Translations under genes and position numbers: made by a program
In this document: positions 1 to 58,090 of the stretch, one piece after another
Layout: every line of letters starts with the position of its first letter
How positions within the stretch are numbered: position 1 is the first letter of the stretch
Assembly (NCBI GenBank): GCA_008632985.1
Contig: QPGO01000010.1
Location: forward strand, 620,001-684,000
Direction: 5' to 3'
Source of the DNA: Psammoneis japonica
Lineage: Eukaryota
DNA length: 64,000 nucleotides
Notes under the pieces: model-generated
The model's database searches: none
Seen by the model: the letters and a program-made list of their open reading frames with translations, nothing else
What the model was told of the DNA's origin: nothing

Positions 1-2050
1 AAACTCTTCCATGCCAGCTGCAGCTCCATCATGCCAACCAATGCCCGACTCTGCACCATGCCCTGGGGCCCTGCCAACACTGACGCCTCCTCAGACAATG
101 TGATCAGTGCTGCCAGCCACACCGGGGCCAATGCTTCCACCTGCATGGGAGCCTGCTGCATCCTCCACTGCTGATGCCTTGGCCCACACCGTTCCCCGTT
201 GCCTGGACTTACGCCATCACCAATCTGGGCAATGAGCCTCTCACTGACGCAACGACACAAGACAGCAAGGGAGATTGGTCACAAACCCCGTCCGTGGTGA
301 TTCAAATGGGGACGGAAAGTTGGATCCAACCAAAACGTGGGTGCACGAGGCCTGTGGAACCACCAATGAGGGTGTGTCACCTCCTCTGCCAATGCTGCCA
401 TCCAATGCTTCCACCTCCACTGGATCCAACTGCGTCCAATGCTTCCACCTCCATTTGAGCCGGCTGTGTCCTCCACACCATTGCCGACACTGCAACTCTG
501 GGTCTCACACGATGGCACCGCACACTCTAGATCCTGCAATGCCTCCTTCACCACCTCCAGCACCCTCAAAGCAGCTGTCTCTCCGCCAGCATTTCCACCC
601 AAAAGCCACCATTGATGCCTCAACCCACACCATTCCCAACACAAACAACGGCCACTGCATCATCAACCTCCCACCCGTCTCCAAGCCCGCACCTCTGCCT
701 GTGCCACCATCCACCCCTCCACAATGCCAATGCCAACTCCAACTCCAGGACACACCTGACAAGCCCCCCCTGCCATTCAGCATCCCACACCCCTGCCTGC
801 TCCAGGTCCTGCAATGCCTCCTTCGACACCACCAACAACATCGCCGTTTTCAGCCTCCACTCCAACAAACGACTGGCACTCGAATCTCGAATCCCAACTT
901 GCCCCCCACTCTCTGCCCTGCAGAGAGTCCACAGAAATGCCAACACATTGTGAACAGGATTCTAGAGATTCCAAGCAAGCCATGTGCAATGCGACCACTC
1001 TGCGACAACATGGCATGCATGTCAATCTCATCCACGTGTCATGAACAATCAAGAGCCGCTCGACAAAAATCATGTGGAGCTGTCTTTGTTCCACTGAACA
1101 ACACAACAAACTCAAAATTGCGAGCGCTGTTTCCAAAATTCCAGACATCGCCAAAGATGCATCACAAAGCATCTGTTGGCTCAACCCGGGAAAAACCGTG
1201 TGAAGCAAATGCGCACCACATGCATCGGATCTTTTCGCTGCAAAGGCATTGATGCAAGAGGGCACTGCACCAGCCAAATGAACAATGGGCAAGTGCCAGA
1301 TGCTCATGCAACCCTGGAAACCTTCAAAGCACGAATGTTCCAAATCGGCACAGCACACTTGACACAGACAACCAAACAGAAAAGATGAAATGACTTCAAG
1401 ACAACGCCATGCCTCGAGTGCAACAAAGCGCAAGACACACAGTGTGTTGAATGATTGACACATTTTGAGAGTGGAGTGCTTGAGTTCTTCTTGTTCTGCC
1501 ATGGGGTTGCAATTGGCTTGCTTCTGCTCTCTCTCTCTCTCTCTTCTGAAGAATCAGACATCCACACCGGCATCTGTTTGAGCGCTGCTGTCCTCTCTTG
1601 TCTCCTTGTCCTCGCGATCAAGCACACACCCGAACTCAGAAAATTGAGCAGCAATGGCAGGACACATGCAAGGATCTGCAGGAAAAGACACACAGATTGA
1701 AATGATGGTGAGACAATGATTCCCCAAACACAGCAGATGCGCACCACATGGCTTTTCCAATGTGCGGAACGAGTGACTTGCACTTTTGAAAGGAGAACAC
1801 TCGAGTGCTTCCAACTCGTCTTCACCCCAAGGATCGGATGGGATCGCTCATCTTTTGCACAGGTGGTTTCGTTGACAAGGAGGCAATGCTGTGGAGGACC
1901 GCACCGCCGCTTTGAACATCGTGTTGACGGAAAATGCAGAAAAATGCTTTCGATCAGCCAAACGCAGGGCATCACAGTTGGACACGTCACAATTTCAGTA
2001 CAAATCATCGTGCAAAGCTACATACACAAATTCACGTAGAAAATCAAATT
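1..2050 (+). pseudogene. Degenerate 5' part of a secreted repeat-domain protein (Pro/Thr/Ser linker plus Ig-like repeat), lying in a TpA-depleted block
   Basis: Fragments in different frames read WTYAITNLGNEPL...GDSNGDGKLDPTKTWVHEA (200-350). These match the intact repeat FDYTVTNGGNVPL...GDTNNDGKLDLDEVWRYAE at 2110-2260, with Y->H. Frameshifts and stops are present. Confidence 0.6.
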
Positions 2051-5659: not shown

Positions 5660-7720
5660 GGGCAGGGTGGGTGCTGCTGGCTGGTGTCCGTCCACAGGCA
5701 GGTGAGATGCAGGTGGCAGCTGTCAGAGCAATGGTGGCAGCTGGCAGCAGCTGCTCTGCCCTTGCTGTGTGCTGGGGCACTGCCAGCGGCTGCTGTGCTT
5801 TTGCTGCTCATCCCGCTCTCTCTTTTGCTTTTTTTTGTGAAAAGAAACAATGTGCACCGCAACACTGATCTGGGAGAGAGCTCTCCAAAAGAGAAGCTGC
5901 AGCAGCAAAAGGGAAAAGAGAAAAATGTCTGGCATTGCTGTGCAAGCCCAGAGGCAAGGTGGCCACAGCACCCTCAGCCATTCTTGCAGCACTGGGAAGT
6001 CTTGGCAAGAGAAGAAACTCTCAGTGCCACAAAAAAGTTCTCTTGGGTGCAAGCACACACAAAAGCAAGGGAAGCAGCTGGGGCTCTGCTTTGAGCAGCT
6101 TCTTGGCATTTCCAGCCACACAGGTTGTGCCTTGAAAGAGCTGCCTCTGGTTTTTTCTTTTGCACCAATCATGGCATCAGGAAAGAACAAAAAAAAGCTT
6201 TCACCAGATGCAAAAACCAGCATGATCTGGAAAAGACGAGCACAGCATGACATCCATGTGAAAATGCTGTTGCTGCTGAAGAGCACTTTCTGTTGCATCA
6301 TTTGCAAACTGAAACTTGTGCCTCATTTCTTGGATCTCATGTTTTGAGCAATGTTCGCCACACCTGGCCATTGATGACATGTGTGCCAGCTTGCTGGGAT
6401 CTCCAGTGGCTGTGCCATTGTGGTGCGTGCATGGCTCAAAAGTGTGCTTGAGACAACAGTGGCAAAAAAGCAGTGGTGAGAGCTGTGCACATTGGCAAGA
6501 CCTCTGTTGCTGAATGAGAAAAAAGTTTCTGCCTTCTTGCACAGAGTGAAGCAAGGCATCATCACACAAATCTGGGATGTTGCTCAAGCTCTTGCTTTGC
6601 TTTGCACAGCACAAAGCCTGATGTGCTTGTCTGCAGGCTTCTTCTTTCTCACATTTCCCATGAGAAATTTTGTTGTTGCAACAAAGCAAAAAGCAGCGGC
6701 TCCAAAAAGAAAAGAACATGCTGCCCACACCATTGTGCCCTGCTTTGTAGGAGCATGGCGGGCAGGGCCTGTCGTGCTTGTCTGTGTGCTGCTTGACTGT
6801 CACACACACACACTCAAAGCTGAGCAGAGCCACTCTTTTGTCTCCATGACAAGCTGATGCAGTTGGCTTTTTGACATGCAGCAGACACCAGCACATTTTA
6901 CAAAACACTCCAGTGCATGGCCAAGGCTGTTTTCATGTTGTTCTTAAAAAAAAAAACAATTTTCAACCAAAACACTGAAGGATCACAGCCTCTTTGGCAA
7001 CCTGCCTCTGCACTTTCAACTTCTCAGTCCTGAGGATCTCATCATTGGTTTGAGCACAGGGAGGACTTCATGGCAGTGTGAGCACCTGTCTGCAGTTCTC
7101 ACAGAACAAGGGCGGCAGAGGCAGGCTGCTTCTCACCCTTGCAACTCATTGATTGCAAGGGTGCCACATTTTTGCAGCAAATGCAGAGAGACACTCACTT
7201 GCACAACTTGCAACAATGCGATGATCCTGCATGCTGCCTGTGTTGCTTGCAGAGACAATGCACACTGTGTTGTCTGTTCTTGCACTCAGCATGTTTTGCA
7301 ACTCGCATCCAGTCTTTTGGCCAGTGCTCCAGTGTGGTTCGCAAAAAATTTTGCAACAGCAAAGATTGCAGCAGTTGCAATGTCCCACTCTGCAGTGCAG
7401 GTTGTGCTCTTTTGTGCTGACTGCTTGTGCATTGACAGCAGCAGCTGTGCTTTCTGTGACATGTCATTTTGTGCTGTGATGTCAAGCTCGTGCACATTGA
7501 TGTGACAAATGTCCAGCTGCTCACTGCCAGATTTGCATTGGCACTTTCAAATGTTTTCTTGTTGGGAAGACTCCCACTGCAAACGATGCATTGCAGTGCT
7601 GTTTAAATTGCAGCATGCAATGACTGCGACATGGTGAAGAAACCGGCAAAACATGACTGCAGTGGCTCGTGTTAAAACTGTGGCATTGTCTGTGACTGGA
7701 TTTTGCCGTGTGCAATGACA
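5660..7720. other. TpA-depleted, CpA/TpG-rich hypermutated block of decayed repeats
   Basis: Only a handful of TA dinucleotides in about 2 kb, mostly TTAA. Many overlapping Cys/His/Gln-rich spurious ORFs. Confidence 0.85.
6200..6430 (+). mobile_element. Possible PIF/Harbinger transposase N-terminal remnant
   Basis: Weak resemblance of DIHVKMLL..STF..SPHLAIDDMCASLLGSPV to Harbinger N-termini after reverting H/C to Y. Heavily decayed. Confidence 0.25.
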
Positions 7721-10471: not shown

Positions 10472-10879
10472 ACTTTTGGTGAACAATCTGTCTCGACCTT
10501 GGTTGAACGATAGTGCGAGACGACTTCACACTTCACACGCCATGAGCAAATGAGAAACGAAACGTCACCCTCATTTTTTGTTGGCGGGAATTTTGGCGCT
10601 AGCGGATGATGAGCAGACGGTGCTTGTGCTCGAGGAGCGAGCGAGGAGGGGAATGAATTTTCAAAGTTCCAAATTCCAACCTCAGGCGTTTGAAAATCCT
10701 TTTCAGGCTGATTTTGAAATCGTTCGGCGTAGCTTTCTACGTGCTTCTACTACGTAAGTGTCTGTTGGGATTTTTGGCGTGTCGCCCGTCTCCGCTTCGT
10801 CGTGCTCACAACTGCAACTCTTGTCGCGAGAGAACGCCAGTCACGAAGCTCTTTCTTCCTTATCCCTTTTCTTTCCAAC

Positions 10880-28043: not shown

Positions 28044-28250
28044 TGCGAAGTTTCAAAATCTTTGATCAACACATTAGAAATCTCGTGAAGTACACTGCGT
28101 ATTGACATTGTGATCGTTGCATCAAAAGTACAGATCGGACATCCGAGATGAAACGAGGGACCTAAATACCTTTGTCGAGAGTGTGGGAACAAGGCAAGAA
28201 TGGTCGAAATCATGCGACCCGCACGACACCAAAATTCAAAATCAAATTTC

Positions 28251-31200
28251 ATCTGGAAACTAGCGCCGCGCGCAGCGGTTCCGTCTGGACTTCGTCGGGG
28301 TACTGCAAAAAAGCACTTTTTGAAAAACATCAAAAAAACGCACGCCATGACGAGCGCCGTCTTGCGGACGTTTATTTCACAATAACTACAAGGCTTATCA
28401 CAGTCATACTAAAGGAACCGTTTCTTCTTCTACACTCAAGTGACACTGTATCTTCAAATTTTTCACAGGATGTCACTGTCAGCAAAGAAAAGGGCTCGGA
28501 GAGTGTACGGTGGTTCGTCTCGGTCAAACGGGGTGACTGTTGAATGTGAGCTTGGATCGCTTTATTCGTCGGAGAAGACGTGTACAAGTTGTGAGAATGC
28601 AACACATGCTTCAATGGAAAGCTATTATGAGCTGGGTTGTGCCTGCAAATGTGCAATGTGCATCAGTTGCTTCGGCAGCACTGTCGCACTGAGAGGCTGT
28701 GACGCAATGCTGTGCTGCGGGGCATGCAACAGCCAAACAACGGAACATGCAATACATGCAGTCCGTTTTGAACGTCATGATGGCACTGTCAAACCAATTC
28801 AACAACCCAGCTGTCACAAAATCACTCCTCCCAATTCCAAGATGGATCCGGTGCGTCATTTCATCCGAAACAAGGAAACACCGGACCAACTCTTCGGAGA
28901 CAACACTCACATCGCGTCATCAAGGATTCAGGATTGTTCTTCACTGACCTTTGCTGGATACAAAGAGGACGGTGATGTTGCGGTTGTTTCAATGGTTCTG
29001 CCCACTTGCTCGCAGGATGATTGGACGAGCGAAATGAAAGAAGCGCTCGAGAAAATCTTCAAGTTTTTTCACACCATCCTGATCACCCTTTGCCCGACGA
29101 AAAAGTTTGATTCATTGGAGCTGTCGAATCAGTCAACTTTAACAAAGCTTGCATGCAATCAGGAGTTCATTCTCCTCAGATGTCTCTACGCTCTTGGGTG
29201 TGGAGAAATGCTGGACGATGGCACACCTGCACGATTCGTGGACTGCTTTGAGAAATTCATTGTAAATGGCGATCCATCTGATTGTGCACGTCCAGAGACA
29301 GGTGAAGACGAAGTTGATGTTTCACTGACACTGCCAGAAGCAGACAAGAAGGATGCAGCACTCGAGGATGAGCTGAAGCGATGCTGCTCAGAGGACTGCA
29401 GCTTCTTGATGAAGCGATTTGTCTGCACAGTGCCAGAGCTTGACAAGGAGCTGGCATGTCTGGCAGCAAAGCTTGAGCCGTCGGAGTGGCAAGGAATTGT
29501 GGCGGCGCACCCGAAACCTGTCAAAGGGGGTTTGAACAAGCCTTTAAAAGTCCACAGAATTGTCCCAGCGAGGCAAGCAATGCGCAAGATGGATCCAGAA
29601 TGGCGGAGTCTCGAAAGGAGGAGTTTGAGGCGAAACGACAGTCGGAGAGAGCTCTGGCGAATTTGCCGAATTCGAAGCAAGACTGAAAGCAGAGATTGAC
29701 CAAGACATCCTGTCCGCAAATGAACGTGTCCGATCTAAATTTACTTGCAAGCATGCGATCACACGCAAGCGGCAAACTGCTGATCACACTGCAGCTGTGC
29801 CACCCTCGCCTGCATCCCGAGAGAGTTCAGCAGCTTTCTCTGTTTGGTCTGATCAATCTGCTGTGCATGGATTGACGGGATTTTCTCAGTCTCCAGCATG
29901 GCTTTGATTCTAAGTTGAGCAGCACGATGCTTTGTTTGTTGAAATGTTCTTTGCATGTGGTGTGCGTAAGCAGTGGCTAGCACAGACTAGTCGCGCAGTC
30001 TGGCTGCAGCTCTTCGACGACTTCAGAGTGGTCTCTAGGCGTTTTGGACGGTTTCGCATGACTCTTCTTGAAAGATTCAATGCAGTCTTTGACGGCAGGC
30101 GAAACCAAACCGTCTTCACCCACAGCTGGTGGGCAGAAATGAAAAGAGTCATTGCACCGGCTTTCACTCCCAGCGACTGTCTTGAATGCTGTCATGACTG
30201 GCTTTGTGTCATGCTTCGAATGCGTCAGTGCCAACAACTCAGGTTTCTTCGCCGGAAGGTCAATGGGATTGCGTTGTCCACCGTCAATGTCGGTTGGTTC
30301 AATTTCATTCAGTGCTGAGCATGCAATGCGTGCACAAGGCTCATCATCAAGCCAATCTGGATGATGTGAAGTGCCAACAGCAGTCCCCACTTTCCTCAAC
30401 AATCCGTGGATCAATTCAATGACGTGTCTGTCTGCCTGTTGACACAGTGTGGTCAGCCTTTTTTGCCAGTGCCATGTGTTCCTCTTCTGGAGAAAGAAGT
30501 GGTGTGGCCTTCAGATTGAAACTTGTGCCACCATCATCGGCGGCGGCACTTGCCTGCTCTTCGGAATCTGGCACTGGGGGTGTGATGCGATGCTTCTTGT
30601 TCGCAGTGCCTCTAAAAAAATTTCTCGACGATTCCAACAAAGTGGGTGATGTGAGCCTTTCATTGGGTGGAGTGTCATTCAAAGAAGGTTCTTGTGGCGA
30701 CTCTCTAGCCAGTTGACTTCCTCCAACACATGCGGTTTGTTCCGAAGCAGCACCCGGCATGGGTGAAACTGCTCGCGGCAACGCCGCAGCTCCGTTGTCA
30801 ACTGGAGCAAGCTTGGCTTCAATTGCAGCCTTTTGATCCATCAAAGTGCGAAGTTGTTGCTCATGTGTGTTTTTCTCCCATCGCGGCATCTTGCTCCAGC
30901 GTTTTTCTCCAGCTTCTGCTCGGCGGCATCCGCCTCAACAAAACTTTGAACCTTCTTGAAAACGGCGCGCCAACTCGTGTCACAACCAGCCATGTGGTGT
31001 GGTGTTGTGCCTCCATCATGTTCCAACTTGAGTGCAGCAACGATTGACAAGCTGTCTGCAGCATCAATCAGCATTGTTTGCCTCTCTTCGGTCCGATTGT
31101 ACGATGGAACAGCATTTGGTGCATCGCATCGGGTGACCCCATTCAACTGTGTGTCGCTGGATGACGGTTCCATCTCTCAACAATCTTGGAAGTTCAACAG

Positions 31201-31390
31201 TCACTTGAACACTCTTAGATTGTGTGTGTTGTGTGTGAGAGCCGCAAGCATTGTTCCAGTGGAGCCACAAGACGACGCGTCGACGGCGCTCGTCATGGTG
31301 TGCGTTTTTTTGTGTTTTCCAAAAAGTGTTTTTTGCAGTGCCCTGACGAAGTCCAGATGGAACCGCTGCACACGGCGCCAGTTTCCAGAT
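28251..31390. mobile_element. About 3.1-kb element bounded by ~110-bp inverted repeats (28251-28361 / 31282-31390), with convergent internal ORFs
   Basis: atctggaaact(a/g)gcgccg...cgagcgccgtc is present in opposite orientations. No TSD or transposase was recognised. Confidence 0.55.
28440..29699 (+). CDS. Element-borne ORF with an N-terminal RING-like Cys cluster, partially mutated
   Basis: CTSC...CACKCAMCISC...CCGAC. Tyr codons become rare toward the 3' end as TA depletion increases. Confidence 0.4.
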   Translation: MTLYLQIFHRMSLSAKKRARRVYGGSSRSNGVTVECELGSLYSSEKTCTSCENATHASMESYYELGCACKCAMCISCFGSTVALRGCDAMLCCGACNSQTTEHAIHAVRFERHDGTVKPIQQPSCHKITPPNSKMDPVRHFIRNKETPDQLFGDNTHIASSRIQDCSSLTFAGYKEDGDVAVVSMVLPTCSQDDWTSEMKEALEKIFKFFHTILITLCPTKKFDSLELSNQSTLTKLACNQEFILLRCLYALGCGEMLDDGTPARFVDCFEKFIVNGDPSDCARPETGEDEVDVSLTLPEADKKDAALEDELKRCCSEDCSFLMKRFVCTVPELDKELACLAAKLEPSEWQGIVAAHPKPVKGGLNKPLKVHRIVPARQAMRKMDPEWRSLERRSLRRNDSRRELWRICRIRSKTESRD

Positions 31391-33110
31391 CCGAAATTGT
31401 CTGAGATGATGACACACATGTCCGCATGAAGTCTGTTTTCAAATTGTCACACAGTGCTGCGCGACGACAACAGTGTCGTGCGCGTGCGGTGGACACGACA
31501 GATTTCGGAATGGATTTTCATGATGTTTCATGCCATGTCGTGAATGCATGCCGGTTGACTCTCTAGCAGGGCCCTAGATGCGATGCATTTCGGACCGAAT
31601 TCCATTTTGACTGAGATCTCTGTCGCAGATGTTGATGTTGTCCATGTGCTCCCTGAGGAACTCCGATCCTCTGCCCCCCACACAATCTCTCACCCATGAT
31701 GTGTGAGCCAGTGCCGAGCAGCCGGTGGAGCAACAGTGCTGTCCTTTGACCATGATTTAAACCTCTTCATCCAATTCTCCATTGATGCACAGCTTCCTCC
31801 TCAGTGACATCATTGTCCTCTTCTTCAACACAGGCAACAGCAGCAGGCTTGCCAAGAGCAGCAGCTTTCTCAACAAGTGCAAAATCTGACAGAAAAAACA
31901 ACATCTTCAGCAGTGTTGGGGTCACCAGCAACAGCAACAAGTCTCAACAACCAGTGCCTCAACAAATGCACCCACATCAGCAGCCATGGCAGGATCTGCA
32001 ATTGGCGGTTCAGCGGGGGTGCATCTTCCAGAAAAACTTCCTCCACAGGAGGACAGTGACAGGACTGCTGTCAAACAATGACAAGACTGACAACAGGTTC
32101 CCCTCTTGACCACTGAATCAGCCAGAGCAACAAAAACCTTGGCCAGCTCAACTGCCACTGGAGTTCACACCCATCCATGCTGGTGGCAAAACCTTGGATG
32201 AGTTTGATGCTCGTGAGTGCATGTGCCAGTCTTGTTTCCTGTCAAACTTGAGCAGCACAGCAGACAACTGCTGATCATTTGAGGTGGGACAAAAATGACA
32301 TGGTTGCATCAAGGGATCTGAAGACTTTGCAGAGCAGCCATGTCAGTTAGAACTTGAGGAGCATTGCAAGTGTGCAATTGTGTCTGAGCATCATCAGGCG
32401 AGGAGGCTCCAACTGATGTGGTGCCCACATCCAAGAAACAATTTGTGCTCCACAACAGTGGCAGCAAAGGGGACAAAAACCCCAAGGGAACATGGATGAA
32501 GCAAAGAAGCCAATGCATGGTGCCTGAACAACCATCCTGCAACTGCAAGGGTGGCTGCAATGGCACCACACACTTGACCCCAAAGAAGAGCGTTGAGGTC
32601 ATCAATTTCCAACATTCAGCAGTGCAAGAAAAAGACATTGCAGCCAACCAACTTCAGCAAGAAGCAAATGAACACCAGCTCAGCAAACAAAACAAGGGGA
32701 GAACTTCACAAATTGCAAGGACCAAAAACACCAATTTCAATTGTGCCGAAAATCTTGTTCACAAAAATGCGTGAAAAAATCCACAAGTCTCAAAGGAAAC
32801 TGCCAATGACCCAGCCATCATGTTCTGCTCTCATTGTGAAACAACACGCAGCAAAGCAGGAGATTGACAAAGACAATGAGAGCAACAAAACACACGCAAT
32901 GAAGATGGGGGTGATGGTGTTGGAAAAGACAGGAGGTTGGAAATGGTGTGTGTGTGTCTCTCTGTGACAAAAGACAAAATTGTGTGGTGAGTGGCAAGCA
33001 GATCCGGTTGCTCATTGTCAAGACTGGTGCTGTTTGTGAACACACAGAAACTGCACTGGAGAGAAGCCTGCAGAAAAGCCAACACCCTTGTGCAGCATGC
33101 ATGCAGACAA

Positions 33111-33430
33111 AAGGTTATTTTTGTTACGCCCTTTGTGACATTTAAAGGCTGTAACACGTCGCCGTGATACATTGGCTCTTGTTAGCAGCTGTGTGTTGCA
33201 CTCCTCCCCATGTATCACGCGTCCATACGGCTCTTTACTAACGTGTGCTGACACTTGCACGGTTTTGGCGGAACAGTGTGGGTGCGTACGAAGGAACATA
33301 CAGAACTGCACAGAGTTTTACGCGTTCGACAGTGATCAACGTTGCTGCAGACAACTCCCACTCAGGGTTTCGAACCCCTGGCCTCCTGCCTAATGGTTGC
33401 GAGATGAACCACTCCGCTATGAATTCATAA
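33111..33430 (-). mobile_element. tRNA-derived SINE or Pol III ncRNA (320 bp) with a 20-bp target-site duplication
   Basis: On the minus strand: A box TAGCGGAGTGG, B box GGTTCGAAACC, internal stem CGTGATACAT/ATGTATCACG, a 3' hairpin and TTTT. Flanking direct repeats TGCAG(CA/TG)TGCATGCAGACAA at 33091-33110 and 33431-33450. Confidence 0.75.
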
Positions 33431-33449
33431 TGCAGTGTGCATGCAGACA

Positions 33450-33526
33450 ACGCCCTTTGTGACATTTAAAGGCTGCAACACGTCGCCGTGACACATTGAC
33501 TCTCATTGGCAGCTGTGTGTTGCACT
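33450..33526 (-). repeat. Older, mutated 3' fragment of the same SINE-like element
   Basis: 77-bp match to 33126-33202 with 6 substitutions. Confidence 0.85.
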
Positions 33527-35699
33527 TGCTCACAATGGTTGAATGCTGGCATGTTTGCACTCAATTCCTTGCAGGCTCCAGGCAAAAACAGTCAGTGATG
33601 GCTGGCTGGAGCCAATGTTGGATTTGTCCTCATTGACAGCTTTGGAGCTGTTCTCCCAGCAACACATTCTGTGTTGCTCATTTTGGGTGCATCCACAATG
33701 GGCACTGTTTGCTTCAAAGCTGTTTTCTGCAATGACGCTCTGTGTTGCATTGACAGAGCCCACTCCATTTCCTGTGCATTTGAAGCACTTGAGTGCACTC
33801 TGCAAAAAAAACCACTGCCAGCCCAGTTGGAAAGCAACACGCAGATTTTGTGCTTGCTTCTGCAGCACATCAGGCCTCAAATGCATTGAGCAATCCTCCT
33901 GGCAATGGATGGTTGGCTGTCAATGAATGAACCCTTGGTCAAACATCATGTGGGCTGGGTCATCTGATCTTGATGGCAAAGGACCCACAACCCAGTGGTG
34001 GTGTTGGAGTCTGGCGAAGAGTGCAAAGTTCTTGATGTGACAACATGAGTGTCAGTGCTTTGCCAGAGGGAGCACTGAGAATTGGAGCCAATCTTTTCAA
34101 ATCATGTGATTTAAAAGAGTGGAGCATGCAGTGGACACAGTTGTCACACCTGCTGGGCACTGATTGCCTTCTGTCTTTGACAACAGCTTGCACCAAGGAG
34201 ACTGTCTTTTGCTCCAACAATGTTGAAAATTGGATGGCAAACATGGCTGCAATCAAGCCAGTCAATGCAATCTCCCGCTGTTTTGGGCACCAAGCATGTG
34301 TCTCACCAGAAAGGTCCTTCAAACATTCTGTGAGTTCTGCCAAGGTGCCTGGATTTGGGGTCTCTGTGACAATGTGCGCGCAGCAATTGCGCACAATGTG
34401 AGTTGCTTCAAAAGAGAGGAGTCCCTGCAAAGCACACAAAAGCTGTGCATTGACCTGAGACTGCTCTTCTTCAGACAGGGTGGAGATTGAGGCAAGAGGA
34501 TGCACAGAGTGTGACAACAGCTGTGCAGTGGGAGCACCGCAGCAGCGCACCTGGAAGAGGTGCAGATTCTTTGCTGGTTTGCTGGTCTTCCCCTCATCTT
34601 TGGTGTGCCAACTTAGAAAGTTCCTGGTGGTCTTGCTCACCTGTTGCAGACAAAAGAGTGTGAGAAACAAGACAAAGAACAGTGATGGAATGCAGCCTTT
34701 CTTGCAATGTTCCTTGCACATCTTGCATGCAGCACTGCAAGCAAAGGACCCTCACCATGCTGCAAACCTTTTGCTGTGTCTGTGTGTGCCCATCACCCAA
34801 CTTGGCACTGACTTTGTAACCAACCACCGCACATGCTGTGATGACAGACTTTTGTCATCCCATCCTTGCCATCAGTGCATCCAAGGACACAAAGAGTGTG
34901 ATTTTCAGCATCCATGTGAACAACAGAGTCACAAGAAGTTTTGCAGCAGTGCCAGCACTGTGGCTCTTGATTCAAAAGTGCTTGGTCCAAGCTTTGCATC
35001 ACGAGCTCTCTTGTGTTTTTCAAAAGCAGCAAGCCAGAGCATGTGCATTTCCAGTTGAATCCAATGGCCACAGAGCTCAACAATCTGCAAACTGAGGAAC
35101 AAAACAATCTTCCCTGTGCCCCTGTCTTCATCATCCACCAGCCTGGGCTCCAGTTGAAACCAAGAGCCTTCTGTTGAGTTTTTGACAACCTTCCCCTTTC
35201 TGCTTCCAGCAAGGCAAGAGCTGTGTTTTTGGTTTGGAGCACTTTTCCACACATTTGACAGATGTGTGCTGCAGTCACACCACAGGAGGTTGCAAGCAAT
35301 CTTGGGAAGCACATGACCCCCAGCTGTTTCATCCCCAACCATTTGAGAGAAAAAGCACACTCTGGAAAGACAACACATCCACACAATGACTCATGTTTTC
35401 CCCTGTGCTGTGCCCAGCTCATGATGGTGCTTGGTGGGTGTTTGCCAAAACATCAAAAGAAGAGCGCCAATTGAGACACCTCCACAAAGCTCTGGTGATG
35501 CTGTGGCAACTCTCCAGTGACCACAATGTTGGCAGGCAGAACAAACAACCTTCACAGAAACAACTGAAGCAACAACAACTGCATGCCAACAACATTTCAA
35601 AACTCTCACCATCTGGGATCACCACAATCATGTTGCTCACCACCCCACCGCACCATGGTTTTGAAGTTAGAAGTTGTGAAGGTCTGCAGCATTGGAAGG

Positions 35700-37660
35700 G
35701 ACAGACATCTGGAGAAACATGTGGTGGGAAAGTTGCATGGAGCGCGCTTGTTGGGGATGGGGAGAGAAAGGTTGGGCCCAAAGTGTGGACAGACAGCCAA
35801 GAAGAGGAGTCATTGGCAACAGTGGGGTGGCAGAGAAGAAGAGCTTGGTGTGCAGAGAGATGGTTGGAGAGAGCAAAGCCAAAGTTGAGGCTGAGGATTT
35901 GAGAGGCCCAAAGTGGAGGGGTTGCAGTGTGACAAGAAGAGCCGAAGCGGTCCAGTGAAAGTTGTTTCCAGGTCACATTGGAGTGGGCAAGGAGGTTGGA
36001 AGAAGGTGTCAGCAGTGAGTTGGTGAAGGCAGAGAAGGATGCTTGAGGGTCAGAAAGGAAAGATGGGCTTGTCCAGGGTAGTTTGGGAGGAAGGGGTGGG
36101 ATGGAGGAAGATGTTGTGGTGGAAGTGCCGAAGAAGAAGATGTGGAAGTGATGTGTGATTCCACCAAGATGGTCGAATGTGAAAGGGAGGAGGAAAAATC
36201 AAGCTTGATTGACAGTGTTGACAATGTTGAAGCTGTGGGTGGATGATGCAGAACAACCAAGAAGCTTGTCCCATGTGCTTCTGAGGTGAGCCTCTTGCTT
36301 GATGGGTTTTCAGGGGTGAGCAAACCAGGTGCAGGAGGCGGGGGAGCTGGCGGTGCAGTGACATGAATGGCCAAAAATTGGTGAGTGGATGGGGCATTTT
36401 TTGGTGCAGAACTGGGGATGAGTTGAGCGCCAACATTGGCAGGGCATTTTGGGGGTGGTCGGCTGAGCGGCCTGGAGGATCAAGGCAGACTTGTTGGCAG
36501 GAACGGCACAGACCGCAAAGGGGGGGGGGGGGGGGGCTGGTGTTTCAATGATGGTGCAAACAGTGTTGCAAATGTGATTTGACAGTGGGCCCTTGTGCAT
36601 TTTGGAGCATGCAAAGGTGTGGTCTTGGCAAGGGTCTGGGCGAGTGTGGCCACATGGGCCCACTGGGCAACAGTGTTAGAGCAGATCGGAAGGGATCATT
36701 TGGAGGCGCAGCACGCGGACGAGAAGAAGTGTGAACAAGTTCGATGGGAGTCAGTTGGAGGCAGGGGCTTGGGCGGAGTGAAGGCACAGGCTTGTTGGCT
36801 GAGACAGCAGTGATGGAAGGACTGGTTGCATGGAAGGATCAACCAGGATCTGGGGGAGAGTGTTGTTCTTGTGATGGTGTGGGTGAAGGCGTTGTGCCAG
36901 ACCACACAGGTTGTGGTGTTTTTGACTGCATGTGCCAATGAGGTGAAAAGGAAGAAGAGTCAAATCAGAGGAGGATGGAAAATGTGACAGAGGGAAAGGT
37001 TGGAGCACCAGTTGGACCGTGAGCCGAGAGCAGCAGAGCGGCTCAATGGAAGATGGAAGACATCGCCGCCGGTGAGCGTGGGATGCCATGTTCAGCGTGG
37101 TGCGTGGATCTTGCAAGGAAAGTTGTGAGAGCTGGGATGGCAACAGAGGAGATGTCACAGCAGCCAACACTGCCCAATGAAATGGGCAGGCTGGCGATGA
37201 GTTTGGTGTCGGAGGGAAATGGGTTGGTGTGTTGGGTGAGATGGGCAAGAAGGAAGCATGGGGAGTGACCGATGATTTTGTCAGTGAAAGGAGATGCCCA
37301 TTGAAAAGGGGGCGGGAGGTCATTGGATTACACAAGGTTGCAGCATGCATCAGCTGATGGGAGATGGGCAATGGAAGGGATGGAGCACTTGCGGGAGAGT
37401 GTGCTTTGTGTTTGTTTGTCGGCGAGGCGGGCAGTGAGACATTGAAGGTCTGTGGCGAAGGAAGCAGCTTTGTTGTGGAGGAAGTTCATAGCAAAGGCGA
37501 ATGAGCCGATGGGTTGGCCGAGAAATCGAGCACCGGCGGTGATTTCAGGTTTGATGCGTGGGTCGTTGTTGGGATTAAGGAAGGCTTTGGAAAGGGCTTC
37601 GGCATCGGCGGGTAAAATAAAGGCGGTCGATGGGAGGAGAGGTGCGGATGGCTGACGCGC
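35700..37660 (-). mobile_element. 5'-truncated, decayed non-LTR retrotransposon (CRE-like: RT end plus CCHC/restriction-like endonuclease)
   Basis: GARFLGQPIGS (late RT motif), PCGH..DPCQDHTFAC..HICN (zinc knuckle), AIHVT (~AIDVT) and DRFGS. Multiple frameshifts. Confidence 0.7.
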
Positions 37661-37746
37661 GCAAGGCGTTGAGTGTCTGATGCGAGTGATCAGAGCATCG
37701 AGGCGAGTCTAAAGGCTCTAACAAACAACAAAGCCTTGTCCAGCTG

Positions 37747-51787: not shown

Positions 51788-52559
51788 TGGCAATGGTGCT
51801 TGAACCATGATCTGGACTACAGGCATATTTCAAATGCATGTCTTGCTCATCGCGAAAAATATCTCTTCTTACATAATAATGCGTAAGATGTTTGAATAAA
51901 CGGCAGAACTGTCAATTGCAATGCTGCGTTATTCGAGGGAAGCATTTTAATTTGGATATCGTTTTCGAATGGTGCAAGTGAAGCATTCCATAGCCCTGTC
52001 CATTTCTCAACCTTCTCTAGCAAGACTGAGACAACTCCCTGTGACTTGTCGCGACATCGCCACCAAAAACAGCGCATTAGTGCAATAAGACTGAGAAAAC
52101 TCCTTTGCCGCTGTGATGTTGTGGCAACATCAACCATCCATCATCCTTCATCACAAGTGAGCATGGCAGGCATCTGCTTGGACAGTGGGAGCCAAAGGAA
52201 TGAGCTCTTGGACTCATGTTGGGTGAGTGTCCAGCTCACGGTGCAAAGAGCTGAAGTCATCTAAGATGTGAGATGGTGGGGATGGTGGAGACAAGGCAAA
52301 CTAGTCCATTGAGAGTTGTGAGTCAGGGAGCTTCTTGCAAAACAGAAAACATTCTGCAACAAGATCCTGGGAGGCCAAGCACCATGGAACGCAGCTTGTC
52401 AAGGAGGCAGTGGCAGTCCTGGACAGAGGCTCGGTGGTGATGTGAGGGGAACTGAGCACAAAGAATGGAGACACGATGACAGCAGCATCAAGCAGTGAGA
52501 TGCAGGGTCATCAACATGGTGTCAATGAGCCAGCCTGGGACCTCCATCTGAGCAGACCA

Positions 52560-55500
52560 ACACTCTGCATTTCCTGTGCTCTTGTCTGGGGTGGCAAGAA
52601 TGTCGCTCGCTGGTCCAGAACATTTTTTTCTCAGCAAGAACAGCTCTTGTCCAGGCAAAAACATTTTGGGCCAGTCTGAAACATTCTTGTCTGGATGACA
52701 ATGTCTGGAACACTCTTGCCCTTGCAAAAAGATTCTTGTCCAGGCAAGAATGCTCTTGCTCTTGACAGGTGTGGAGCGCTCTTGTCTGGACGCAGGGACA
52801 TTGTTGTCTTGGCAAAAACATTCTCAACTGGTCTGGACCAATCTTGTCTGGGCAAGAACACTCTTGCCTTGGAAAGGATGTTTTTGACTCACCACAGGAA
52901 TCTGCACAAGAATGTTCTTGACAGGTTGGGAACACTCTTTTCTGGGCAAGAAAGTTTGGCAAGAGTTCATTTGATTGGTCACAGATGTCAAGGCAAGAAC
53001 ACTCTTGTCTGGGCAACTTTGTCTGGGCAAGAACAATCTTGTCCATGCAAGAACATTCTTGACCAGTCTGAGCAACAACATTCTTGTCTGTTCACAAACA
53101 TTTTTGGTTTGTCTGGTGCTAGAACATTCTTGTCCAGTGGGCGAGAACATTCTGAACTGGTCTGGAGCATTCTTGTCTGGGCAAGAAGAGCTCTTGTCTC
53201 CTGGGCAAGAACTTTCTGAGCTGGTTCAGAACATTCTTGTCTGGGCAAAAACATCATTGTCAAGGCAAGAACATTCTTGACTGGTCTGGAACATTCTTGT
53301 CTGGGCAAGAACATTCTGGGCCAGTCTGGAACACTCTTGTCTGGGCAAGATGAGCTGTTGTCTGGGCAAGAACAAGGTTCTGGGGGCGGGTCTGGAACAC
53401 TCTTGCACGGGCAGCCAAGAACATTTTTGTCTGTGTGTGAGCATTCTTGACTGGTCAGGAACACTTTCAACTGGGCAAGATCATTCTTGTCTGTGCAAGA
53501 ATGTTCTTGGCCAGCCTTTGATGTTGTTCTTGGCTGGCCTGGAACACTCTTGTTTGGGAAAGAACATTCTTGTCTGTGCAAGAACATTTTTAGCTGGTCT
53601 GAGGCATGCTCTTGTCTGATCTGGAACACTCTTTTGTTTGGGCTGGAATGTGCTTGACTGGTCTGGAACATTCTTGTTTGAGCAACAACAACATTGATGA
53701 GCTGAGAATGTTTGTGGTTGGTCAAGCACACATCTTTTTTTAGCCAAGAACATTTTTGACTGGCAAAGATTGTTCTTGATTGTTGAAGAATGCTCTCAAC
53801 TGGTCTGGAACATTCTTTTCTGGGCAAGGGCATTCTCTTGTGTGGGAACTGGGAATGTTCTTGGCTGGTCTGGAATGCTTTTGTCTTGGCAACACATTCT
53901 TGACTGGTTTGCAATGTTCCTGTCTGGGCAAAAACGTTCTTGGCCAGTCTGGAATGTTCTTGTCCAGGCAAGAACATTGTTGACATGCTGCGGGTGTTTT
54001 TGGCTGGTCTTCAATGTCTTTGTTTGGTCAAGATTGTTCTTGGCTGGTGAATTCTCAACTGGTCTGGAGAGCATTCTGGTCTGGCCAAGAATTGCTGGTC
54101 AAGAATGTTCATGACTGGTCTGGAACATTCTTGTGTGTGCAGGAATGTTTGGGTGGGTCAAGAACATTTTGGTTGGTTTTTCTCATGAGCCAAAAAGATC
54201 AAAAGATTGGCATTTTCAATGGCTAAGGTTGCAGCTGACCTTGCTTGCCATGCAAAATTGATGGGTCATCAGGAACATGTTGGTGCATGCATCGTGTGCT
54301 CTCTTTGCCCCAAACTCTGGTGGAGATGAAGCTGTTTTCTCAGAGGCCAGTCTGAGCCTGCAAACTGGAGATGGGGGGGGGAGGGGGTGAACTGTGGTTG
54401 CACATTGACAGGTGGCCCATTTGAGTTTTTTGCCAGAGTTGTGCCATTGCAACTGACAGGAGGCTGCCAACTCAGAGCTCTGGTGACAGCAGCTTGATGT
54501 GTTGTGAGACCTGCTGTTCTTCTGGATCATTGAGACAGGTTTTGATTGGGGTGTCTCTTAAATTTTGTGGTCACAAGCATGCTGCCACAAATCCATCAAA
54601 TCCAGAACAACAAGCTGGTGTGCTGTTGCCCACATGTTGGATGAATGCTCCCGGCATGCCTCTTGGGCAACGTTGTTCCTGGTGAACAAAGAAAAACACC
54701 AAGCCAAGATTTTTGGAAGGTGTTGGGTCTGGTTTCCAAGGCAGTTGATCCACCCGCTCTGCTGCTTTCACAAAATGGTGGCAGATGGCATTTTGGTTGT
54801 GATCTTTTGTGATCAGTCTCTTTGCAAAGTTTTTGGTGGTGTTGGCACAGTCACACATGTCAGAATTTTGCATCCCGAGTCATGGCAAGTTGCCACAAAC
54901 AACACTCTTCAATGCTCCTGGTGGGTGGGTGGGGGTGCAGGTAGAGCTGGAAGGCATGTGCAAAAAGAGGTTTGCTGGTTTTTGACATGTTTTTGTGACA
55001 ATGCATCTGTCTTCTCCAATTTTTGTTTCAAGATCCAGGAAGACCACAGAGGTGGAGAGTGGGGGAAGTGACCAATCAGAGGAGACCTGAGTTGTCAAGC
55101 TCATTTTAAGGGCTTCCCAAGAAGTCTCTCAGCTGCTGTTTCTGGCCCATTCTCCAAATGTGTCATCAACAAACTATCCTGGATGAGAACATTCTTTTCT
55201 GGGCAAGAACACTTCTGTCTGGTCTGGAACAATCTTGGGCCAGTCTGGACTGTCTTGTCTGGTTGAGAGAACAGCTCTTGTTGAGGCAAAAGCATTCTGA
55301 GCAGGTCTGGAACATCACTCTTGTCTGGGCAAGATCATTCTTGTCTGGACAAGGATGTTTTTGATTGCAATGGATGTTGTTCTTGGCTGGCATTGAACAC
55401 TCTCCTGCCTCAGCTGGGCAGGAGAACATTTCTGTCTGGCCTGGGACACTCTTGTCTGGGTCTGAAGCACTCTTGTCTGCACAAGAATGTTTTTGGCTGG

Positions 55501-55900
55501 TCTGGAACATTCTTGTCTGGGCAAGAACATCCTTGATAAGCTGTGGACATTTTAGGCCAGTTTTCAACACCTTTTTTTGACAAGAACATTCTTGGCTGGT
55601 GAGGAATGTTCTTGACTGGTCCAGAGCATTCTTGTCAGTCAAAAATGTCCTTAACTGGCCAAGAATGTTTTTGACTGATCCAGAGCTTTCTGGTGTGTGC
55701 AAGAACATTTGGATGAGTCAAGAACATTTTGGCTTGTCCAGAAAGGTCTTTTCTGGTCAAAAACATTCCTGGCTTGTCAAGAATGTTTTTGACCAGTCTG
55801 GAACATCCCTGTGTTGGCAAGAACATTTTGTCTGGGCAAGGATGTTCTTGACTGTGCTGGGGGAAATTCTTGTCTGGGCAAGAGTGCTCTTGACTGGTCT
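52560..55900. repeat. Palindromic ~20-bp minisatellite CAAGAA(CA/TG)TTCTTG with 6-bp spacers, interrupted at about 54180-55170
   Basis: Dozens of aagaacattcttg / aagaatgttcttg units separated by tctggg or actggt-type spacers. Confidence 0.9.
54540..55110 (-). mobile_element. Penelope-like retroelement fragment (RT thumb / C-terminal region), decayed
   Basis: VVFLDL..TKTCQKPANLFLHMP..HPPGALKS..QNS..FAKRL..PQNLRD matches the PLE pattern FLDL..TYQKPxNLxLYIP..HPP..LK..NLRD, with Y->C/H. Confidence 0.7.
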
Positions 55901-56949
55901 GGGACAGGAAAAGTAAAAAGAGTGCATCATGGAGCAAGCTTCTGAAGTTGTGCCATGGAGTGTGCTTTTCCCTTCTTTGTCGGTGTGCAAAAAATCTCAC
56001 CACTCTGATTGTTTTTTGTGGCTGTAAATTGTTGCAACACTGTGCATGTGCACAAGCAAATGTTGTTCTTGTAAAAACCTGGAAACTTTCTTAGAAAAGT
56101 TGCACAGGTGGTGTCATGACTGCCACAGCACTGCACATGAAGACAAGATGAAAAAACCTTTTCTTGAGGGGGTTCACCCCCATGTTCATCCAAGGGTTGC
56201 AATGGCATGTGAGCGACACTTCTGCAGTGTTCATTGTTGAGTGCAAAAATTGTTCTTGCTGTTGTTCACACCTCATCACCTGCCATGCACAAAAAAAAGA
56301 ACATCATGCATGGCAATTGACATGACAACAAGGACAATCATCAACACTTTAAAAAAACACAGCTTGCCATCTACAAACTTTCCATGCATGCAAGAGCTTT
56401 GATGCACAAAGAACACAAAGCAAATGAGAGTTGACAGATGGACCACCTCCAACACAGGTTTATGGTTTGCCATTTTTGCCATGGTGAAGCACAGTGAAAT
56501 TCAGGAAAAGTCATGCAAAACATGAGCAGCCACTCAGCCAATTTGAGCTAAATAAAAACAGCAGCTGGCCACCCTTAAAATGCACACAAATGGCAGTGGT
56601 GCAGCAGGAGGCCTGTTTGCAGTTCACCCCAAATGGTGTTTGCACTTGCAGCATGGCAACCACAGCAAGATGACAGATGTCTCCTCTTGGCCTGCTGTGA
56701 CACTCAATGAGCATCCTTGCCTCCTTGATCTGACAGTGGCTTGAGAGCCCTCTCTGAGCTTTTGTGCACCTGCCCACTTTCTTCTGAACTCTGCTGCCAC
56801 AACCCTGAGGGTGCAGTTCTTTAGGTGCCTTCTGCCTGGCACCTGGCTGGGTGCTTTTTGCCCACAGGTGCAAATGTGCACTTTGTTGTCTCAGCGCCAC
56901 AGAAACCAAAACAAGACAGAAGGTTTCTTGCTTTGGGCTGCTGTGGCAC

Positions 56950-57560
56950 CCAGCAAGCATCCTCAAACTACAACCCAGTGCAAGTGGAGCAACGTTTGAG
57001 AATCCTCAGAGACACAGCTCTTGTCTTGCCTCGTCAACATTCTCCAAGAGAAAGGTCCTGTCAGCAAAACAAGTCAAACATTGCACCGCACAATCTCTTG
57101 GCCACATCAATTTCCTTCTTGGCACCCAGCACTTCGACCATCTTGCTGCACTTGACAATGCAACAGGCCCACAGCAAGGTCTTGAGCACAAAGAGATTGG
57201 AGGCCCAGCAAAAGTGATCACCAAGACAGCAGACAGCACACAAGTCAAAGCTGCCCTTGCCCGGCATGGCTCCCACAACACTTTGCTGTGCCATGAACAA
57301 AGGAGGGCACAGCAAAAATGACCACTTGAGCTCCTTTGGCAATTTTGGGATTGTCAGAGATTGTTGCGGGCTTGCCAATGATGTCAGCACCCACACAATT
57401 TTGACAGGTGATGCCTTGGTTGGGCGCAACTGCAGTGAGATGATCAGCTTCGTGCATTTTCTCACTGGTGCCAGCAGGCTTGTGTCAGGGACATGCTGCC
57501 TTAATGGCACATTTCCTGTCTGCCCACCTGAAATTGCAAGCTCACATTTTGATGAACACG
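56950..57560 (-). pseudogene. Opine (octopine/tauropine) dehydrogenase pseudogene
   Basis: VIFAVPSFVH, GAMPGKGSFDL and KTLLWACCIVKCSKMVEVLGAKKEIDV resemble the family motif ETLPWACRIxxYGxxVEVLGTK. Frameshifted. Confidence 0.7.
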
Positions 57561-58090
57561 GCAACACTTTGAGAGCTTGGGTCATCAGCAGGACACATCA
57601 GCAAGGGTGGTTGTCTTGTTTTGGCTCCCATCTCTGCTTGCAGCACCTGCAACAATGCATGACACCAGCATGCATGGACAGGTCAGCCAGCTGTGATGGC
57701 TTTTGGAAATGCTGGCAGATGGCAGACATGGAGCCGCAATGGACAGAGCATCCGACACACCCACACATTGTTGGACATGTGACTCAAAAGGAGAAAAGCC
57801 TTTTGATTTCGTGGACCCGAAGTCATCCTACGTGTCAAATGACTCACTCAATCACGGATCGAAGTCATCCTATGATGTCTTTACTCTTTACGATTACGTA
57901 CTAGAATCGTACGTACGACTTTGACGACAAAGACACACTTGGGTTAAATAGGAGTATCAACCTAGAATGTCTGTGACCTGTAGAATCCTGAGTTTTTATT
58001 CGCGCCTATGGTGCACGATGCTAGTCGATTTAACCCCGGACAATTTCCGTTACTTATAGGCGTTTCTGTGAACATATTATACTGATTTAA

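Follow-up and report, generated by a model that had tools for sequence, protein, structure and literature searches.

Our analysis of a window of 64,000 nucleotides (the whole stretch of DNA studied here) from Psammoneis japonica indicates that transposon-derived intergenic DNA of this pennate diatom was probably hypermutated locally after its insertion. The A of 5′-TA dinucleotides would have been changed to G on either strand, apart from the decay of CpG.

Depletion of TA in four intergenic blocks

A first-pass annotation, made from the letters of the sequence, had claimed that four blocks are almost devoid of TA and that adjacent genes have normal TA. Our counts and observed/expected (O/E) ratios bear this out for the following regions (no strand assigned):

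1..1990: TA-poor block 1, extending past the window start; 3 TA; TA O/E 0.03; CG O/E 0.51
5660..7720: TA-poor block 2; 5 TA; TA O/E 0.04; CG O/E 0.16; CA and TG O/E both 1.91
28627..37488: TA-poor block 3; 45 TA, including 16 in an unmutated island (33111-33449)
52090..57820: TA-poor block 4; 26 TA; TA O/E 0.07; CG O/E 0.11; includes the arrays listed next
about 52779-53982 and 55305-55535: arrays of the 20-base unit, without TA in the unit, inside block 4

At flank-level frequencies, blocks 1 to 4 would be expected to contain 63, 79, 318 and 230 TA, compared to the 3, 5, 45 and 26 observed (TA O/E of 0.03, 0.04, 0.08 and 0.07 compared to 0.58 in the remainder of the window). The sliding-window analysis of TA, CG and CA+TG ratios that had been recommended, carried out within the 64 kb, gave low TA and high CA/TG in the blocks: the median TA O/E is 0.049 inside them (60 windows of 1 kb) and 0.57, with a minimum of 0.21, outside (160 windows of 1 kb). 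CA and TG O/E reach 1.46-2.05 in the blocks (1.19 for CA and 1.17 for TG outside), and CG O/E falls to 0.51, 0.16, 0.43 and 0.11 in blocks 1 to 4 (0.97 outside). TA and CG are the only dinucleotides lost: AA is not depleted (1.15-1.37 compared to 1.13 outside), AT lies at 0.66-1.03 and GA at 0.79-1.04. All blocks are intergenic and have sharp borders, TA loss ending about 100-400 bases from the neighbouring genes, in agreement with the domain restriction proposed initially. For block 3, first delimited at 28630-37480, the block itself stands but its exact border is better placed at 28627-37488.

The following elements overlap block 3 or lie within it:

28245..31398, plus strand: DNA transposon with terminal inverted repeats (TIRs), internally deleted and multi-copy (depth 141-820 compared to about 60 for single-copy DNA)
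28245..28361, plus strand: left TIR, unmutated; 2 TA and all CG retained
28413..29696, plus strand: transposon frame P0121, 428 codons from stop to stop; resembles proteins 1014-1136 residues long in its N- and C-terminal regions, the middle being absent
31282..31398, minus strand: right TIR, mutated; both TA lost (to TG and CA) and five CG changed to TG/CA
33111..33449, no strand assigned: island of normal TA, a high-copy short interspersed repeat; 16 TA; TA O/E 0.75; k-mer depth about 75,700 compared to about 60
33450..33939, no strand assigned: older copy of the repeat, mutated; depth about 9,700; 1 TA
33940..37480, no strand assigned: TA-poor DNA with a run of long minus-strand frames; mostly single-copy depth (33940-35807); TA O/E 0.03; CG O/E 0.23

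The recognised targets are one TIR transposon and high-copy repeats, the other block DNA matching no recognisable source; about 3.3 kb of block 3 is at single-copy depth at a likeness of at least 85%. Apart from this transposon, no credible Pfam match was obtained for the 174 block frames of at least 60 residues. Relatives were detected neither for the two block frames tested nor for the long minus-strand frames of 33940-37480. Since only TGA stops remain in TA-free DNA, such DNA yields long spurious frames, which calls for caution in the annotation of diatom genomes. Hypermutated repeats also evade homology-based repeat masking.

Direction, context and rate of the TA loss

The direction of change is from TA to TG/CA, as the first-pass annotation had proposed. 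Alignment of 28245-28361 with 31282-31398 recovered the differences noticed earlier in this inverted-repeat pair, the in-block arm showing ctag changed to ctgg, gtac changed to gcac and five CG changed to TG/CA, with one A>G outside TA. In the repeat pair 33126-33202 and 33450-33526 (92% identical), the second copy has lost three of its four TA (gtaa to gcaa, atac to acac and ttag to ttgg) and has retained all its CG. This loss had been correctly described, but the label SINE given to the pair was not confirmed, neither a tRNA nor an Rfam family being found when searched in the high-copy repeat. All five polarised TA losses of these two pairs gave TG or CA.

The frame P0121 leads to the same direction. 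Tyrosine accounts for 2 of the 356 residues of its TA-poor part and for 6 of the 72 of its TA-normal part, compared to 2.9% in homologs (range 0.9-8.4%). In the five columns with Tyr in at least half of the homologs, the codons of the window are CAT, TGT, TGC, TGC and GCA, i.e., no Tyr at all and a TGY or CAY codon in four cases. Codon 349 is TGT in the window and CAT in a paralog, each one step from TAT. The earlier claim of Cys or His codons at conserved Tyr positions therefore holds for one transposon protein (four of five columns) and not for host remnants, none of which were found in the four TA-poor blocks. Among the 40 listed of 460 differences from paralogous contigs, the window has CA or TG where the paralog has TA at eight sites, and the reverse is seen at one. 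Polarity was judged from the two short pairs, the five protein columns and these 40 of 460 differences. Together, the five of five pair losses, the four of five Tyr codons and the eight listed paralog sites compared to one are A to G or T to C transitions of the type known in the chlorarachniophyte Bigelowiella natans, CpG transitions representing a second process. The same 40 listed differences also include six TG-versus-CA pairs, which are compatible with ancestral CG as well as with ancestral TA.

Since TA to TG and TA to CA changes are interleaved within 40-60 bases in both repeat pairs and since both CA and TG are elevated in each of the four blocks, both strands were hit, as had been suggested. 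A tetranucleotide conversion model gave no clear preference, with r = 0.18 compared to 0.08 without conversion. The TA that survive in the blocks are YTAR in 40 of 63 cases, those elsewhere in the window in 281 of 1626 (p = 4e-16, binomial test), the loss amounting to about 96% of ordinary (non-YTAR) TA and about 66% of YTAR. This survival points to a putative T-A-Y target. Such a rule would be a preference only, since two of the five polarised events hit T-A-G.

The TA loss is separable from CpG decay and faster. CG to TG/CA decay does co-occur in the TA-poor blocks (CG O/E 0.11-0.51), as reported initially, and this component is as expected of methylated CpG. However, TA is also lost where CG is intact. 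The last 250 bases of block 1 (1740-1990) contain 16 CG and no TA. In the TIR element, the first 382 bases (left) have a normal TA O/E of 0.50, and the remainder has a TA O/E of 0.10 and a CG O/E of 0.75; survival is 0.17 for TA compared to 0.78 for CG, so that TA disappeared about seven times faster (from −ln survival). These two regions and the mutated repeat copy that keeps all its CG show that TA loss is independent of CpG decay, and methyl-CpG decay was rejected as sole cause because it explains the CG loss only. The argument that neither fungal repeat-induced point mutation (RIP) nor 5mC decay fits was thus upheld, since RIP creates TpA and 5mC decay cannot remove TA. By contrast, the description of the process as repeat-targeted was not supported in its homology-triggered sense. 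A trigger by duplication, as in RIP, was rejected: the left 382 bases of the multi-copy element and the repeat of about 1260 copies at 33111-33449 are spared, the latter unmutated though inside block 3, into which it was probably inserted later, and DNA of single-copy depth is mutated. Duplication is therefore neither necessary nor sufficient.

Proposed mechanism and rival explanations

We propose that transposon-derived DNA was inserted between genes and then underwent a local hypermutation acting on DNA, which would convert the A of 5′-TA to G on either strand and give TG or CA, a slower CG to TG/CA decay proceeding separately in the same blocks. A TadA/ADAT2-type enzyme preferring T-A-pyrimidine could be at work, deaminating adenine to hypoxanthine. 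It would be directed at foreign DNA or silent chromatin, not at sequence duplication, and may act in episodes, by analogy with B. natans.

A thymine-directed chemistry, in which the T of TpA would be modified in silent chromatin, for example by hydroxylation as in the 5-hydroxymethyluracil and base J pathways, and then misrepaired or miscopied as C, is an unlikely competitor. The outcome would be symmetric, A to G being inseparable in sequence from T to C on the opposite strand, and the domain limits are consistent with a chromatin-bound modifying enzyme. The simplest reading of the YTAR sparing is that the base 3′ of the adenine matters, although an effect of the base 5′ of the T is equally possible, and the authors of the B. 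natans study prefer adenine deamination, likewise as a proposal (bioRxiv 10.64898/2026.01.13.699255). One of the initial candidates, a Pol-eta-type enzyme of the Y family (WA to WG) carrying out error-prone repair synthesis in methylated chromatin, is very unlikely. It predicts A to G after a 5′ T, and the CpG decay of the blocks would provide lesions for repair, but it should mutate the A of AA as well as of TA, and AA is undepleted (O/E 1.15-1.37 compared to 1.13 outside). Moreover, the loss of about 96% of non-YTAR TA far exceeds what patch repair of CpG lesions would give where CG is still at 0.75.

It is highly improbable that the blocks were TA-free from the start, by a native foreign or satellite composition or by selection against TA. 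The arrays of block 4 are indeed built of a unit without TA and most block DNA matches no recognisable source, but the loss is common to unrelated elements (a TIR transposon, a short repeat, arrays and unique DNA), and the same transposon is TA-normal in its left 382 bases. In addition, homologs contain 0.9-8.4% Tyr where conserved Tyr codons read here Cys or His, and paralogs retain TA (8 of the 40 listed differences). A sequencing or assembly artefact, with modified bases of long reads misread as transitions, is extremely improbable. Methylation of the affected DNA is probable, given its CpG depletion, and the only run containing the sequence (X1, a public run whose library type is not on record) may come from the same sample as the assembly. 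However, X1 contigs, assembled from exact 31-letter words, match the TA-poor regions 31318-33115, 33500-35880 and 36520-37430 with 3, 5 and 0 differences (0-5 per 0.9-2.4 kb, which requires accurate reads), and their k-mer depth of 60-68 equals that of flanking genes (59.6 and 60.6), i.e., single-copy. Furthermore, a repeat with normal TA lies inside block 3 and the borders match element structure. Lastly, ADAR-like RNA editing (U-A preference) could have altered retroelement transcripts, reverse transcription then fixing the changes. ADAR does prefer a 5′ U (cited in bioRxiv 10.64898/2026.01.13.699255), which would favour this reading, but its likelihood is practically negligible: instead of one-strand A to G changes in elements passing through RNA, the only element identified belongs to the TIR DNA transposons, both strands are altered within tens of bases, unique DNA is hit too and no reverse transcriptase was found among the block frames.

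Significance and comparison with known systems

Our literature search found no description of a TpA-erasing hypermutation in diatoms. TpA-specific A/T to G/C hypermutation of invading DNA is reported once so far, in a 2026 preprint on B. natans (Mettrop et al., bioRxiv 10.64898/2026.01.13.699255). The diatom case would mean that the process is not confined to one species and that it may span the SAR supergroup, a group that includes main ocean primary producers. We tentatively suggest, with somewhat less than even confidence, that an old enzyme-driven defence is common to diatoms and chlorarachniophytes; it would edit adenine in chromosomal 5′-T-A-Y on both strands, be aimed through silent chromatin at mobile or viral DNA and erase more than 90% of TpA before methyl-CpG decay takes a quarter of CpG. 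If so, DNA adenine editing would be a widespread SAR counterpart of RIP and of APOBEC restriction and would offer natural DNA adenine deaminases, of interest for genome-defence research and for base-editing technology. With two distant hosts, comparative genomics could narrow the enzyme candidates, and new, testable mechanistic constraints come from the preference for T-A-pyrimidine and from how fast TA is lost compared to CpG.

Fungal RIP, which is premeiotic and depends on the RID enzyme, likewise hypermutates mobile DNA irreversibly through dinucleotide-specific transitions, wrecking it and leaving islands of skewed dinucleotides. However, it is triggered by duplication, which is neither necessary nor sufficient here, and its C to T change at CpA makes TpA, whereas the diatom process destroys TpA and produces CpA/TpG, so that RIP was rejected. 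The deamination of 5mC shares the CG to TG/CA changes of the same blocks (CG O/E 0.11-0.51) but cannot remove TA, which was lost about seven times faster in the TIR element. Similarly, AID/APOBEC enzymes carry out context-specific deamination of nucleic acids as an innate defence and leave hypermutated fossils in genomes; they act on C, mostly on single strands during reverse transcription, with asymmetric G to A changes, unlike the symmetric A/T to G/C changes found here. TadA and ADAT2-ADAT3, whose natural tRNA target is U-A-C, convert A to I after a 5′ U/T, which would match the putative T-A-pyrimidine preference. According to the preprint, a natural action on chromosomal DNA has been claimed for a few ADAT2 proteins only (cited in bioRxiv 10.64898/2026.01.13.699255).

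The closest system is that of B. natans. In its mutation-accumulation lines, 230 of the 231 new mutations of two integrated viral regions were A to G or T to C, all 230 on TpA, and its genome contains 124 TpA-poor, CpA+TpG-rich clusters (bioRxiv 10.64898/2026.01.13.699255). As described there, TpA is changed to TpG/CpA on both strands in a sharply local and apparently episodic manner, the clusters are several kb long, many frames cannot be annotated, and low-TpA sequences are enriched in transposase and reverse-transcriptase domains. The diatom changes are similarly confined to TpA (TA O/E 0.03-0.08, with AA, AT and GA kept), and all four blocks exceed the CA+TG threshold of clusters of this type, part of 28501-30500 lying at its edge (CA+TG 1.42-1.55). 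The two cases nevertheless differ. The host is there a rhizarian and here, according to the flanking genes, a pennate diatom (stramenopile). The targets described there are a giant virus and a virophage, compared to a TIR transposon, short repeats and arrays. Rho is given as 0.45 in the NCLDV region, whereas the diatom blocks are near saturation (TA O/E 0.03-0.10). CpG decay coincides here, and the term CpG has 0 occurrences in the preprint; the sparing of YTAR seen here is not described in its abstract, Results or Discussion (bioRxiv 10.64898/2026.01.13.699255). Finally, the rate was measured in B. natans, while the diatom process is known from its fossil signature.

TA-poor blocks and their authenticity

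A sliding-window count revealed four blocks in which TA is near zero and CA + TG are almost doubled (O/E, observed/expected dinucleotide ratio):

1-1990: block 1, three TA (O/E 0.03) compared to 63 expected at flank-level frequency
5660-7720: block 2, five TA (O/E 0.04) compared to 79 expected at flank-level frequency
28630-37480: block 3, 45 TA (O/E 0.08) compared to 318 expected at flank-level frequency
52090-57820: block 4, 26 TA (O/E 0.07) compared to 230 expected at flank-level frequency

These counts bear out the first-pass annotation, which had described TA-poor blocks next to TA-normal DNA (O/E 0.03-0.08 compared to 0.58 in the remaining 45 kb of the window). The median TA O/E of 1-kb windows is 0.049 inside the blocks (n = 60) compared to 0.57 outside (n = 160), where the minimum is 0.21. 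The summed O/E of CA, TG, CG and TA is about unchanged (3.7-4.05 in the blocks compared to 3.91 outside), as transitions within these pyrimidine-purine (YR) steps would leave it. A tetranucleotide conversion model of the blocks was confounded by the coding flanks.

The block borders are sharp: at the left of block 3, TA is found at 28623 and 28626 and then only at 28753 and 28959, and at the right of block 4, it is found at 57502, next at 57829, and is dense beyond. The blocks occupy intergenic space, and about 30-400 bases separate them from the adjacent reading frames. The stretch adjoining block 4 on the right (57830-58900) is the most AT- and TA-rich of the window (GC 41-43%, TA O/E 0.71-0.73), and the passage from TA-free to TA-dense DNA at this edge takes place within about 300 bases. 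TAA and TAG are almost missing from all four blocks, leaving TGA as the sole stop and therefore many long frames (150-430 codons) on both strands; the window has 69 frames of at least 150 residues, many of which overlap inside the blocks. Gene predictors are thus expected to make spurious gene calls in TA-poor blocks.

As a wider background, we used 80 metagenome loci around homologs of the FGGY kinase-ribulose-phosphate epimerase (FGGY-RPE) fusion encoded next to block 2 (486 kb). None of their 1668 1-kb windows has a TA O/E below 0.16, and the seven below 0.25 are confined to three loci with 59-72% GC and CA+TG of at most 1.42. These contigs are short and broken at repeats, and they serve as a background control; absence of the process from other diatoms cannot be read from them.

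Modified bases miscalled in long reads are an unlikely source of the TA-poor sequence, since it is matched by contigs assembled from exact 31-letter words of X1 (a public sequencing run, 2019), and such contigs require accurate reads. These contigs show three differences from the window in 31318-33115, five in 33500-35880 and none in 36520-37430. The run contains 81% of the words sampled from 28001-38000, and depth is 65-68 over TA-poor DNA compared to 59.6 and 60.6 over the flanking genes. X1 may be the source sample of the assembly, and therefore no independent isolate.

Direction of change in repeated DNA

Block 3 and its left border comprise the following features:

28245-31398: TIR element, with 117-base inverted repeats at its ends (90% identical)
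33111-33449: short repeat (island in block 3), about 1260x single-copy depth, with normal TA (O/E 0.75)
33450-33939: older repeat copy adjoining 33111-33449, mutated, depth about 9,700
31605-33005 and 33940-35807: DNA at roughly single-copy depth at 85% likeness or more

The TIR pair straddles the block border, its left arm being in TA-normal DNA and its right arm inside block 3. The right arm carries ctag->ctgg and gtac->gcac, the two changes (ctag->ctgg and gta->gca) that had been noticed from the sequence at first reading, besides five CG->TG/CA and one other A>G. In the short-repeat pair (33126-33202 and 33450-33526), alignment confirmed that the in-block copy lost three of its four TA, two becoming CA and one TG, and kept every CG, as first claimed. 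This repeat is framed by directly duplicated sequence (about 100 bases; 33100-33202 and 33440-33526), unmutated in one copy and TA-depleted in the other; 33100-33526 looks like the product of insertion of a young repeat copy into an old one, or of recombination between the two. Neither a tRNA scan nor an Rfam scan of this high-copy repeat gave a match.

The TIR element is multi-copy (depth 141-820 compared to about 60 for single-copy DNA in X1 contigs). A full HMMER search with its 428-codon frame (28413-29696) found 25 relatives (best E = 2e-21). Judging from relatives of 1014-1136 residues, which align to this frame only by their N-terminal (about 40-240) and C-terminal (about 850-1014) parts, the window copy is an internally deleted TIR DNA transposon. 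Among 20 of the 25 homologs, Pfam gave nothing above cut-off; the superfamily is left without a name because the sole match, a weak one to DUF6589 in homolog P0134, is below cut-off. A single-protein query of metagenome contigs with the transposon protein gave 122 pattern matches and no relatives.

Conserved Tyr columns of this protein (Tyr in 50% or more of the aligned homologs) were scored from protein alignment A3 up to residue 275 and from a separate alignment for the C-terminal part. Positions 336, 353, 356 and 375, where A3 aligns the window to a domain missing from the window copy, were left out.

Column 116: Ala in the window
Column 149: His (CAT) in the window
Column 263: Cys (TGT) in the window
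Column 278: Cys (TGC) in the window, Tyr in 11 of 11 homologs
Column 338: Cys (TGC) in the window, Tyr in eight of 12 homologs

Four of the five columns thus read Cys or His and none reads Tyr, in agreement, for this one transposon protein, with the Tyr to Cys/His replacement initially reported for TE and host remnants. Within the frame, the TA-poor part has two Tyr among 356 residues and the TA-normal start six among 72; the figure for homologs is 2.9%. Since Tyr ranges from 0.9 to 8.4% over the 25 homologs, the family is not natively TA-free.

Paralogous contigs were compared through 40 listed differences out of 460. Among these 40, the window has CA/TG where the paralog has TA in eight cases and the reverse in one; CG opposes TG/CA in 11 rows, besides four other transitions and four transversions. 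Six dinucleotides, also among the 40, pair a window TG with a paralog CA; likewise, codon 349 is TGT in the window and CAT in the paralog, each one step from TAT. For these TG/CA differences, an ancestral CG would fit equally well. At 30793-30794, the window has CG and the contig of run X2 carries both changes, apparently TA, so that a single dinucleotide differs by two transitions. The two adenines of a TpA might be convertible together (TA->CG), which, if true, would supply new CpG to hypermutated DNA.

The TIR element is the only one identified in the blocks. For the 174 block frames of at least 60 residues, Pfam gave no credible match: all matches of the 32 frames of at least 110 residues and of the 142 of 60-109 residues are below curated cut-offs. 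On the right of the island, frame 35422-36198 (-) has no relatives, and frame 33963-34751 (-) has an atlas recognition score of 1580, under the known-family level, with mixed matches and no relatives. Block 4 carries arrays of 20-base units in both orientations (52600-54150 and 55160-55830). The alternation of CA and TG at fixed unit positions indicates an ancestral YR step resolved independently in many units. At position 9-10 (n = 64 units: CA 52, TG 9, CG 1, TA 0, GA 1, CT 1), its identity is ambiguous, both CG and TA fitting.

Specificity, context and trigger of TA loss

The loss is specific to TpA: AA (O/E 1.15-1.37), AT and other steps are not depleted in the blocks. The undepleted AA disfavours a WA-type polymerase (Pol-eta), whose WA->WG signature had been put forward as a candidate. 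Editing of retroelement RNA is spoken against by changes on both strands within tens of bases (TIR and short-repeat pairs) and by the fact that a DNA transposon and unique DNA are both affected. TA loss can be told apart from CpG decay and outpaces it: survival in the TIR element is 0.17 for TA compared to 0.78 for CG (a 7-fold difference in -ln), 1740-1990 holds 16 CG and no TA, and the mutated short repeat kept its CG. Overall, the core of the initial reading is supported: a domain-restricted TpA->TpG/CpA change that affects both strands and accompanies CpG decay.

The surviving TA are enriched in YTAR (pyrimidine-T-A-purine; 40/63 compared to 281/1626 outside, p = 4e-16), with 14 TTAA, 10 CTAG, 10 TTAG and six CTAA. 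About 66% of YTAR were lost compared to about 96% of other TA. Each adenine of YTAR has a purine on its 3' side, so T-A-pyrimidine emerges as the favoured target, though not as a strict rule: two of the five polarised events are T-A-G.

The "repeat-targeted, RIP-like" trigger of the first-pass annotation found no support, and its TadA-like DNA adenine deaminase is a candidate enzyme. The process is not simply repeat-triggered, since the leftmost 382 bases of the multi-copy TIR element (TA O/E 0.50) and the 1260-copy repeat inside block 3 are untouched whereas DNA at single-copy depth is saturated. The untouched young repeat suggests episodic action, or its own very recent insertion.

Host and comparison with known systems

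The genes around the blocks are of eukaryotic, phototroph-like type (tubulin, FGGY-RPE fusion, DUF285, RCC reductase and PT-repeat protein). Among the best relatives of the FGGY-RPE fusion, those with a name come from pennate diatoms (Nitzschia inconspicua, Pseudo-nitzschia, Seminavis robusta and Bacillariaceae; 61-71% identity); the host is therefore a diatom and not Bigelowiella. Two flanking genes have additional features:

8009-10486 (-): fusion of FGGY carbohydrate kinase and ribulose-phosphate 3-epimerase, without introns; among its best 120 matches, nearly all have the three-domain architecture and those naming an identifiable organism are all diatoms
59063-64000: reading frame of more than 1100 codons continuing past the window end, in which a 108-base unit is repeated in tandem at least 39 times and encodes Pro/Thr/Ser-rich "PT" repeats (Pfam PT, E = 5e-62); GC 58%, well above the remainder of the window

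In outcome, no classical system comes closer than fungal RIP. However, RIP does not explain the loss seen here: its chemistry is opposite to that of the window, where its duplication trigger does not apply either.

A matching description is given by Mettrop et al. for 15 mutation-accumulation lines of Bigelowiella natans (bioRxiv 10.64898/2026.01.13.699255). Integrated giant-virus and virophage regions carried 231 of 302 new single-nucleotide mutations; 230 of these 231 were A->G or T->C, every one on TpA, at rates of about 6e-7 and in only 11 of the 15 lines. The B. natans genome has 124 TpA-poor, CpA+TpG-rich clusters, and DDE and reverse-transcriptase domains are enriched in its low-TpA coding sequences. 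The ADAT2-like DNA adenine deaminase is an unproven proposal of these authors. The preprint mentions neither diatoms nor CpG. Beyond it, literature searches gave no comparable case, in diatoms or in other organisms.

The window shows the composition and the TpA specificity described in that preprint; the mutation rate is a measurement from B. natans. With this precedent, TpA->TpG/CpA hypermutation no longer stands alone, and the window appears to be its first diatom case, near saturation. Its T-A-pyrimidine preference and a rate well above that of CpG decay are new constraints on the mechanism.
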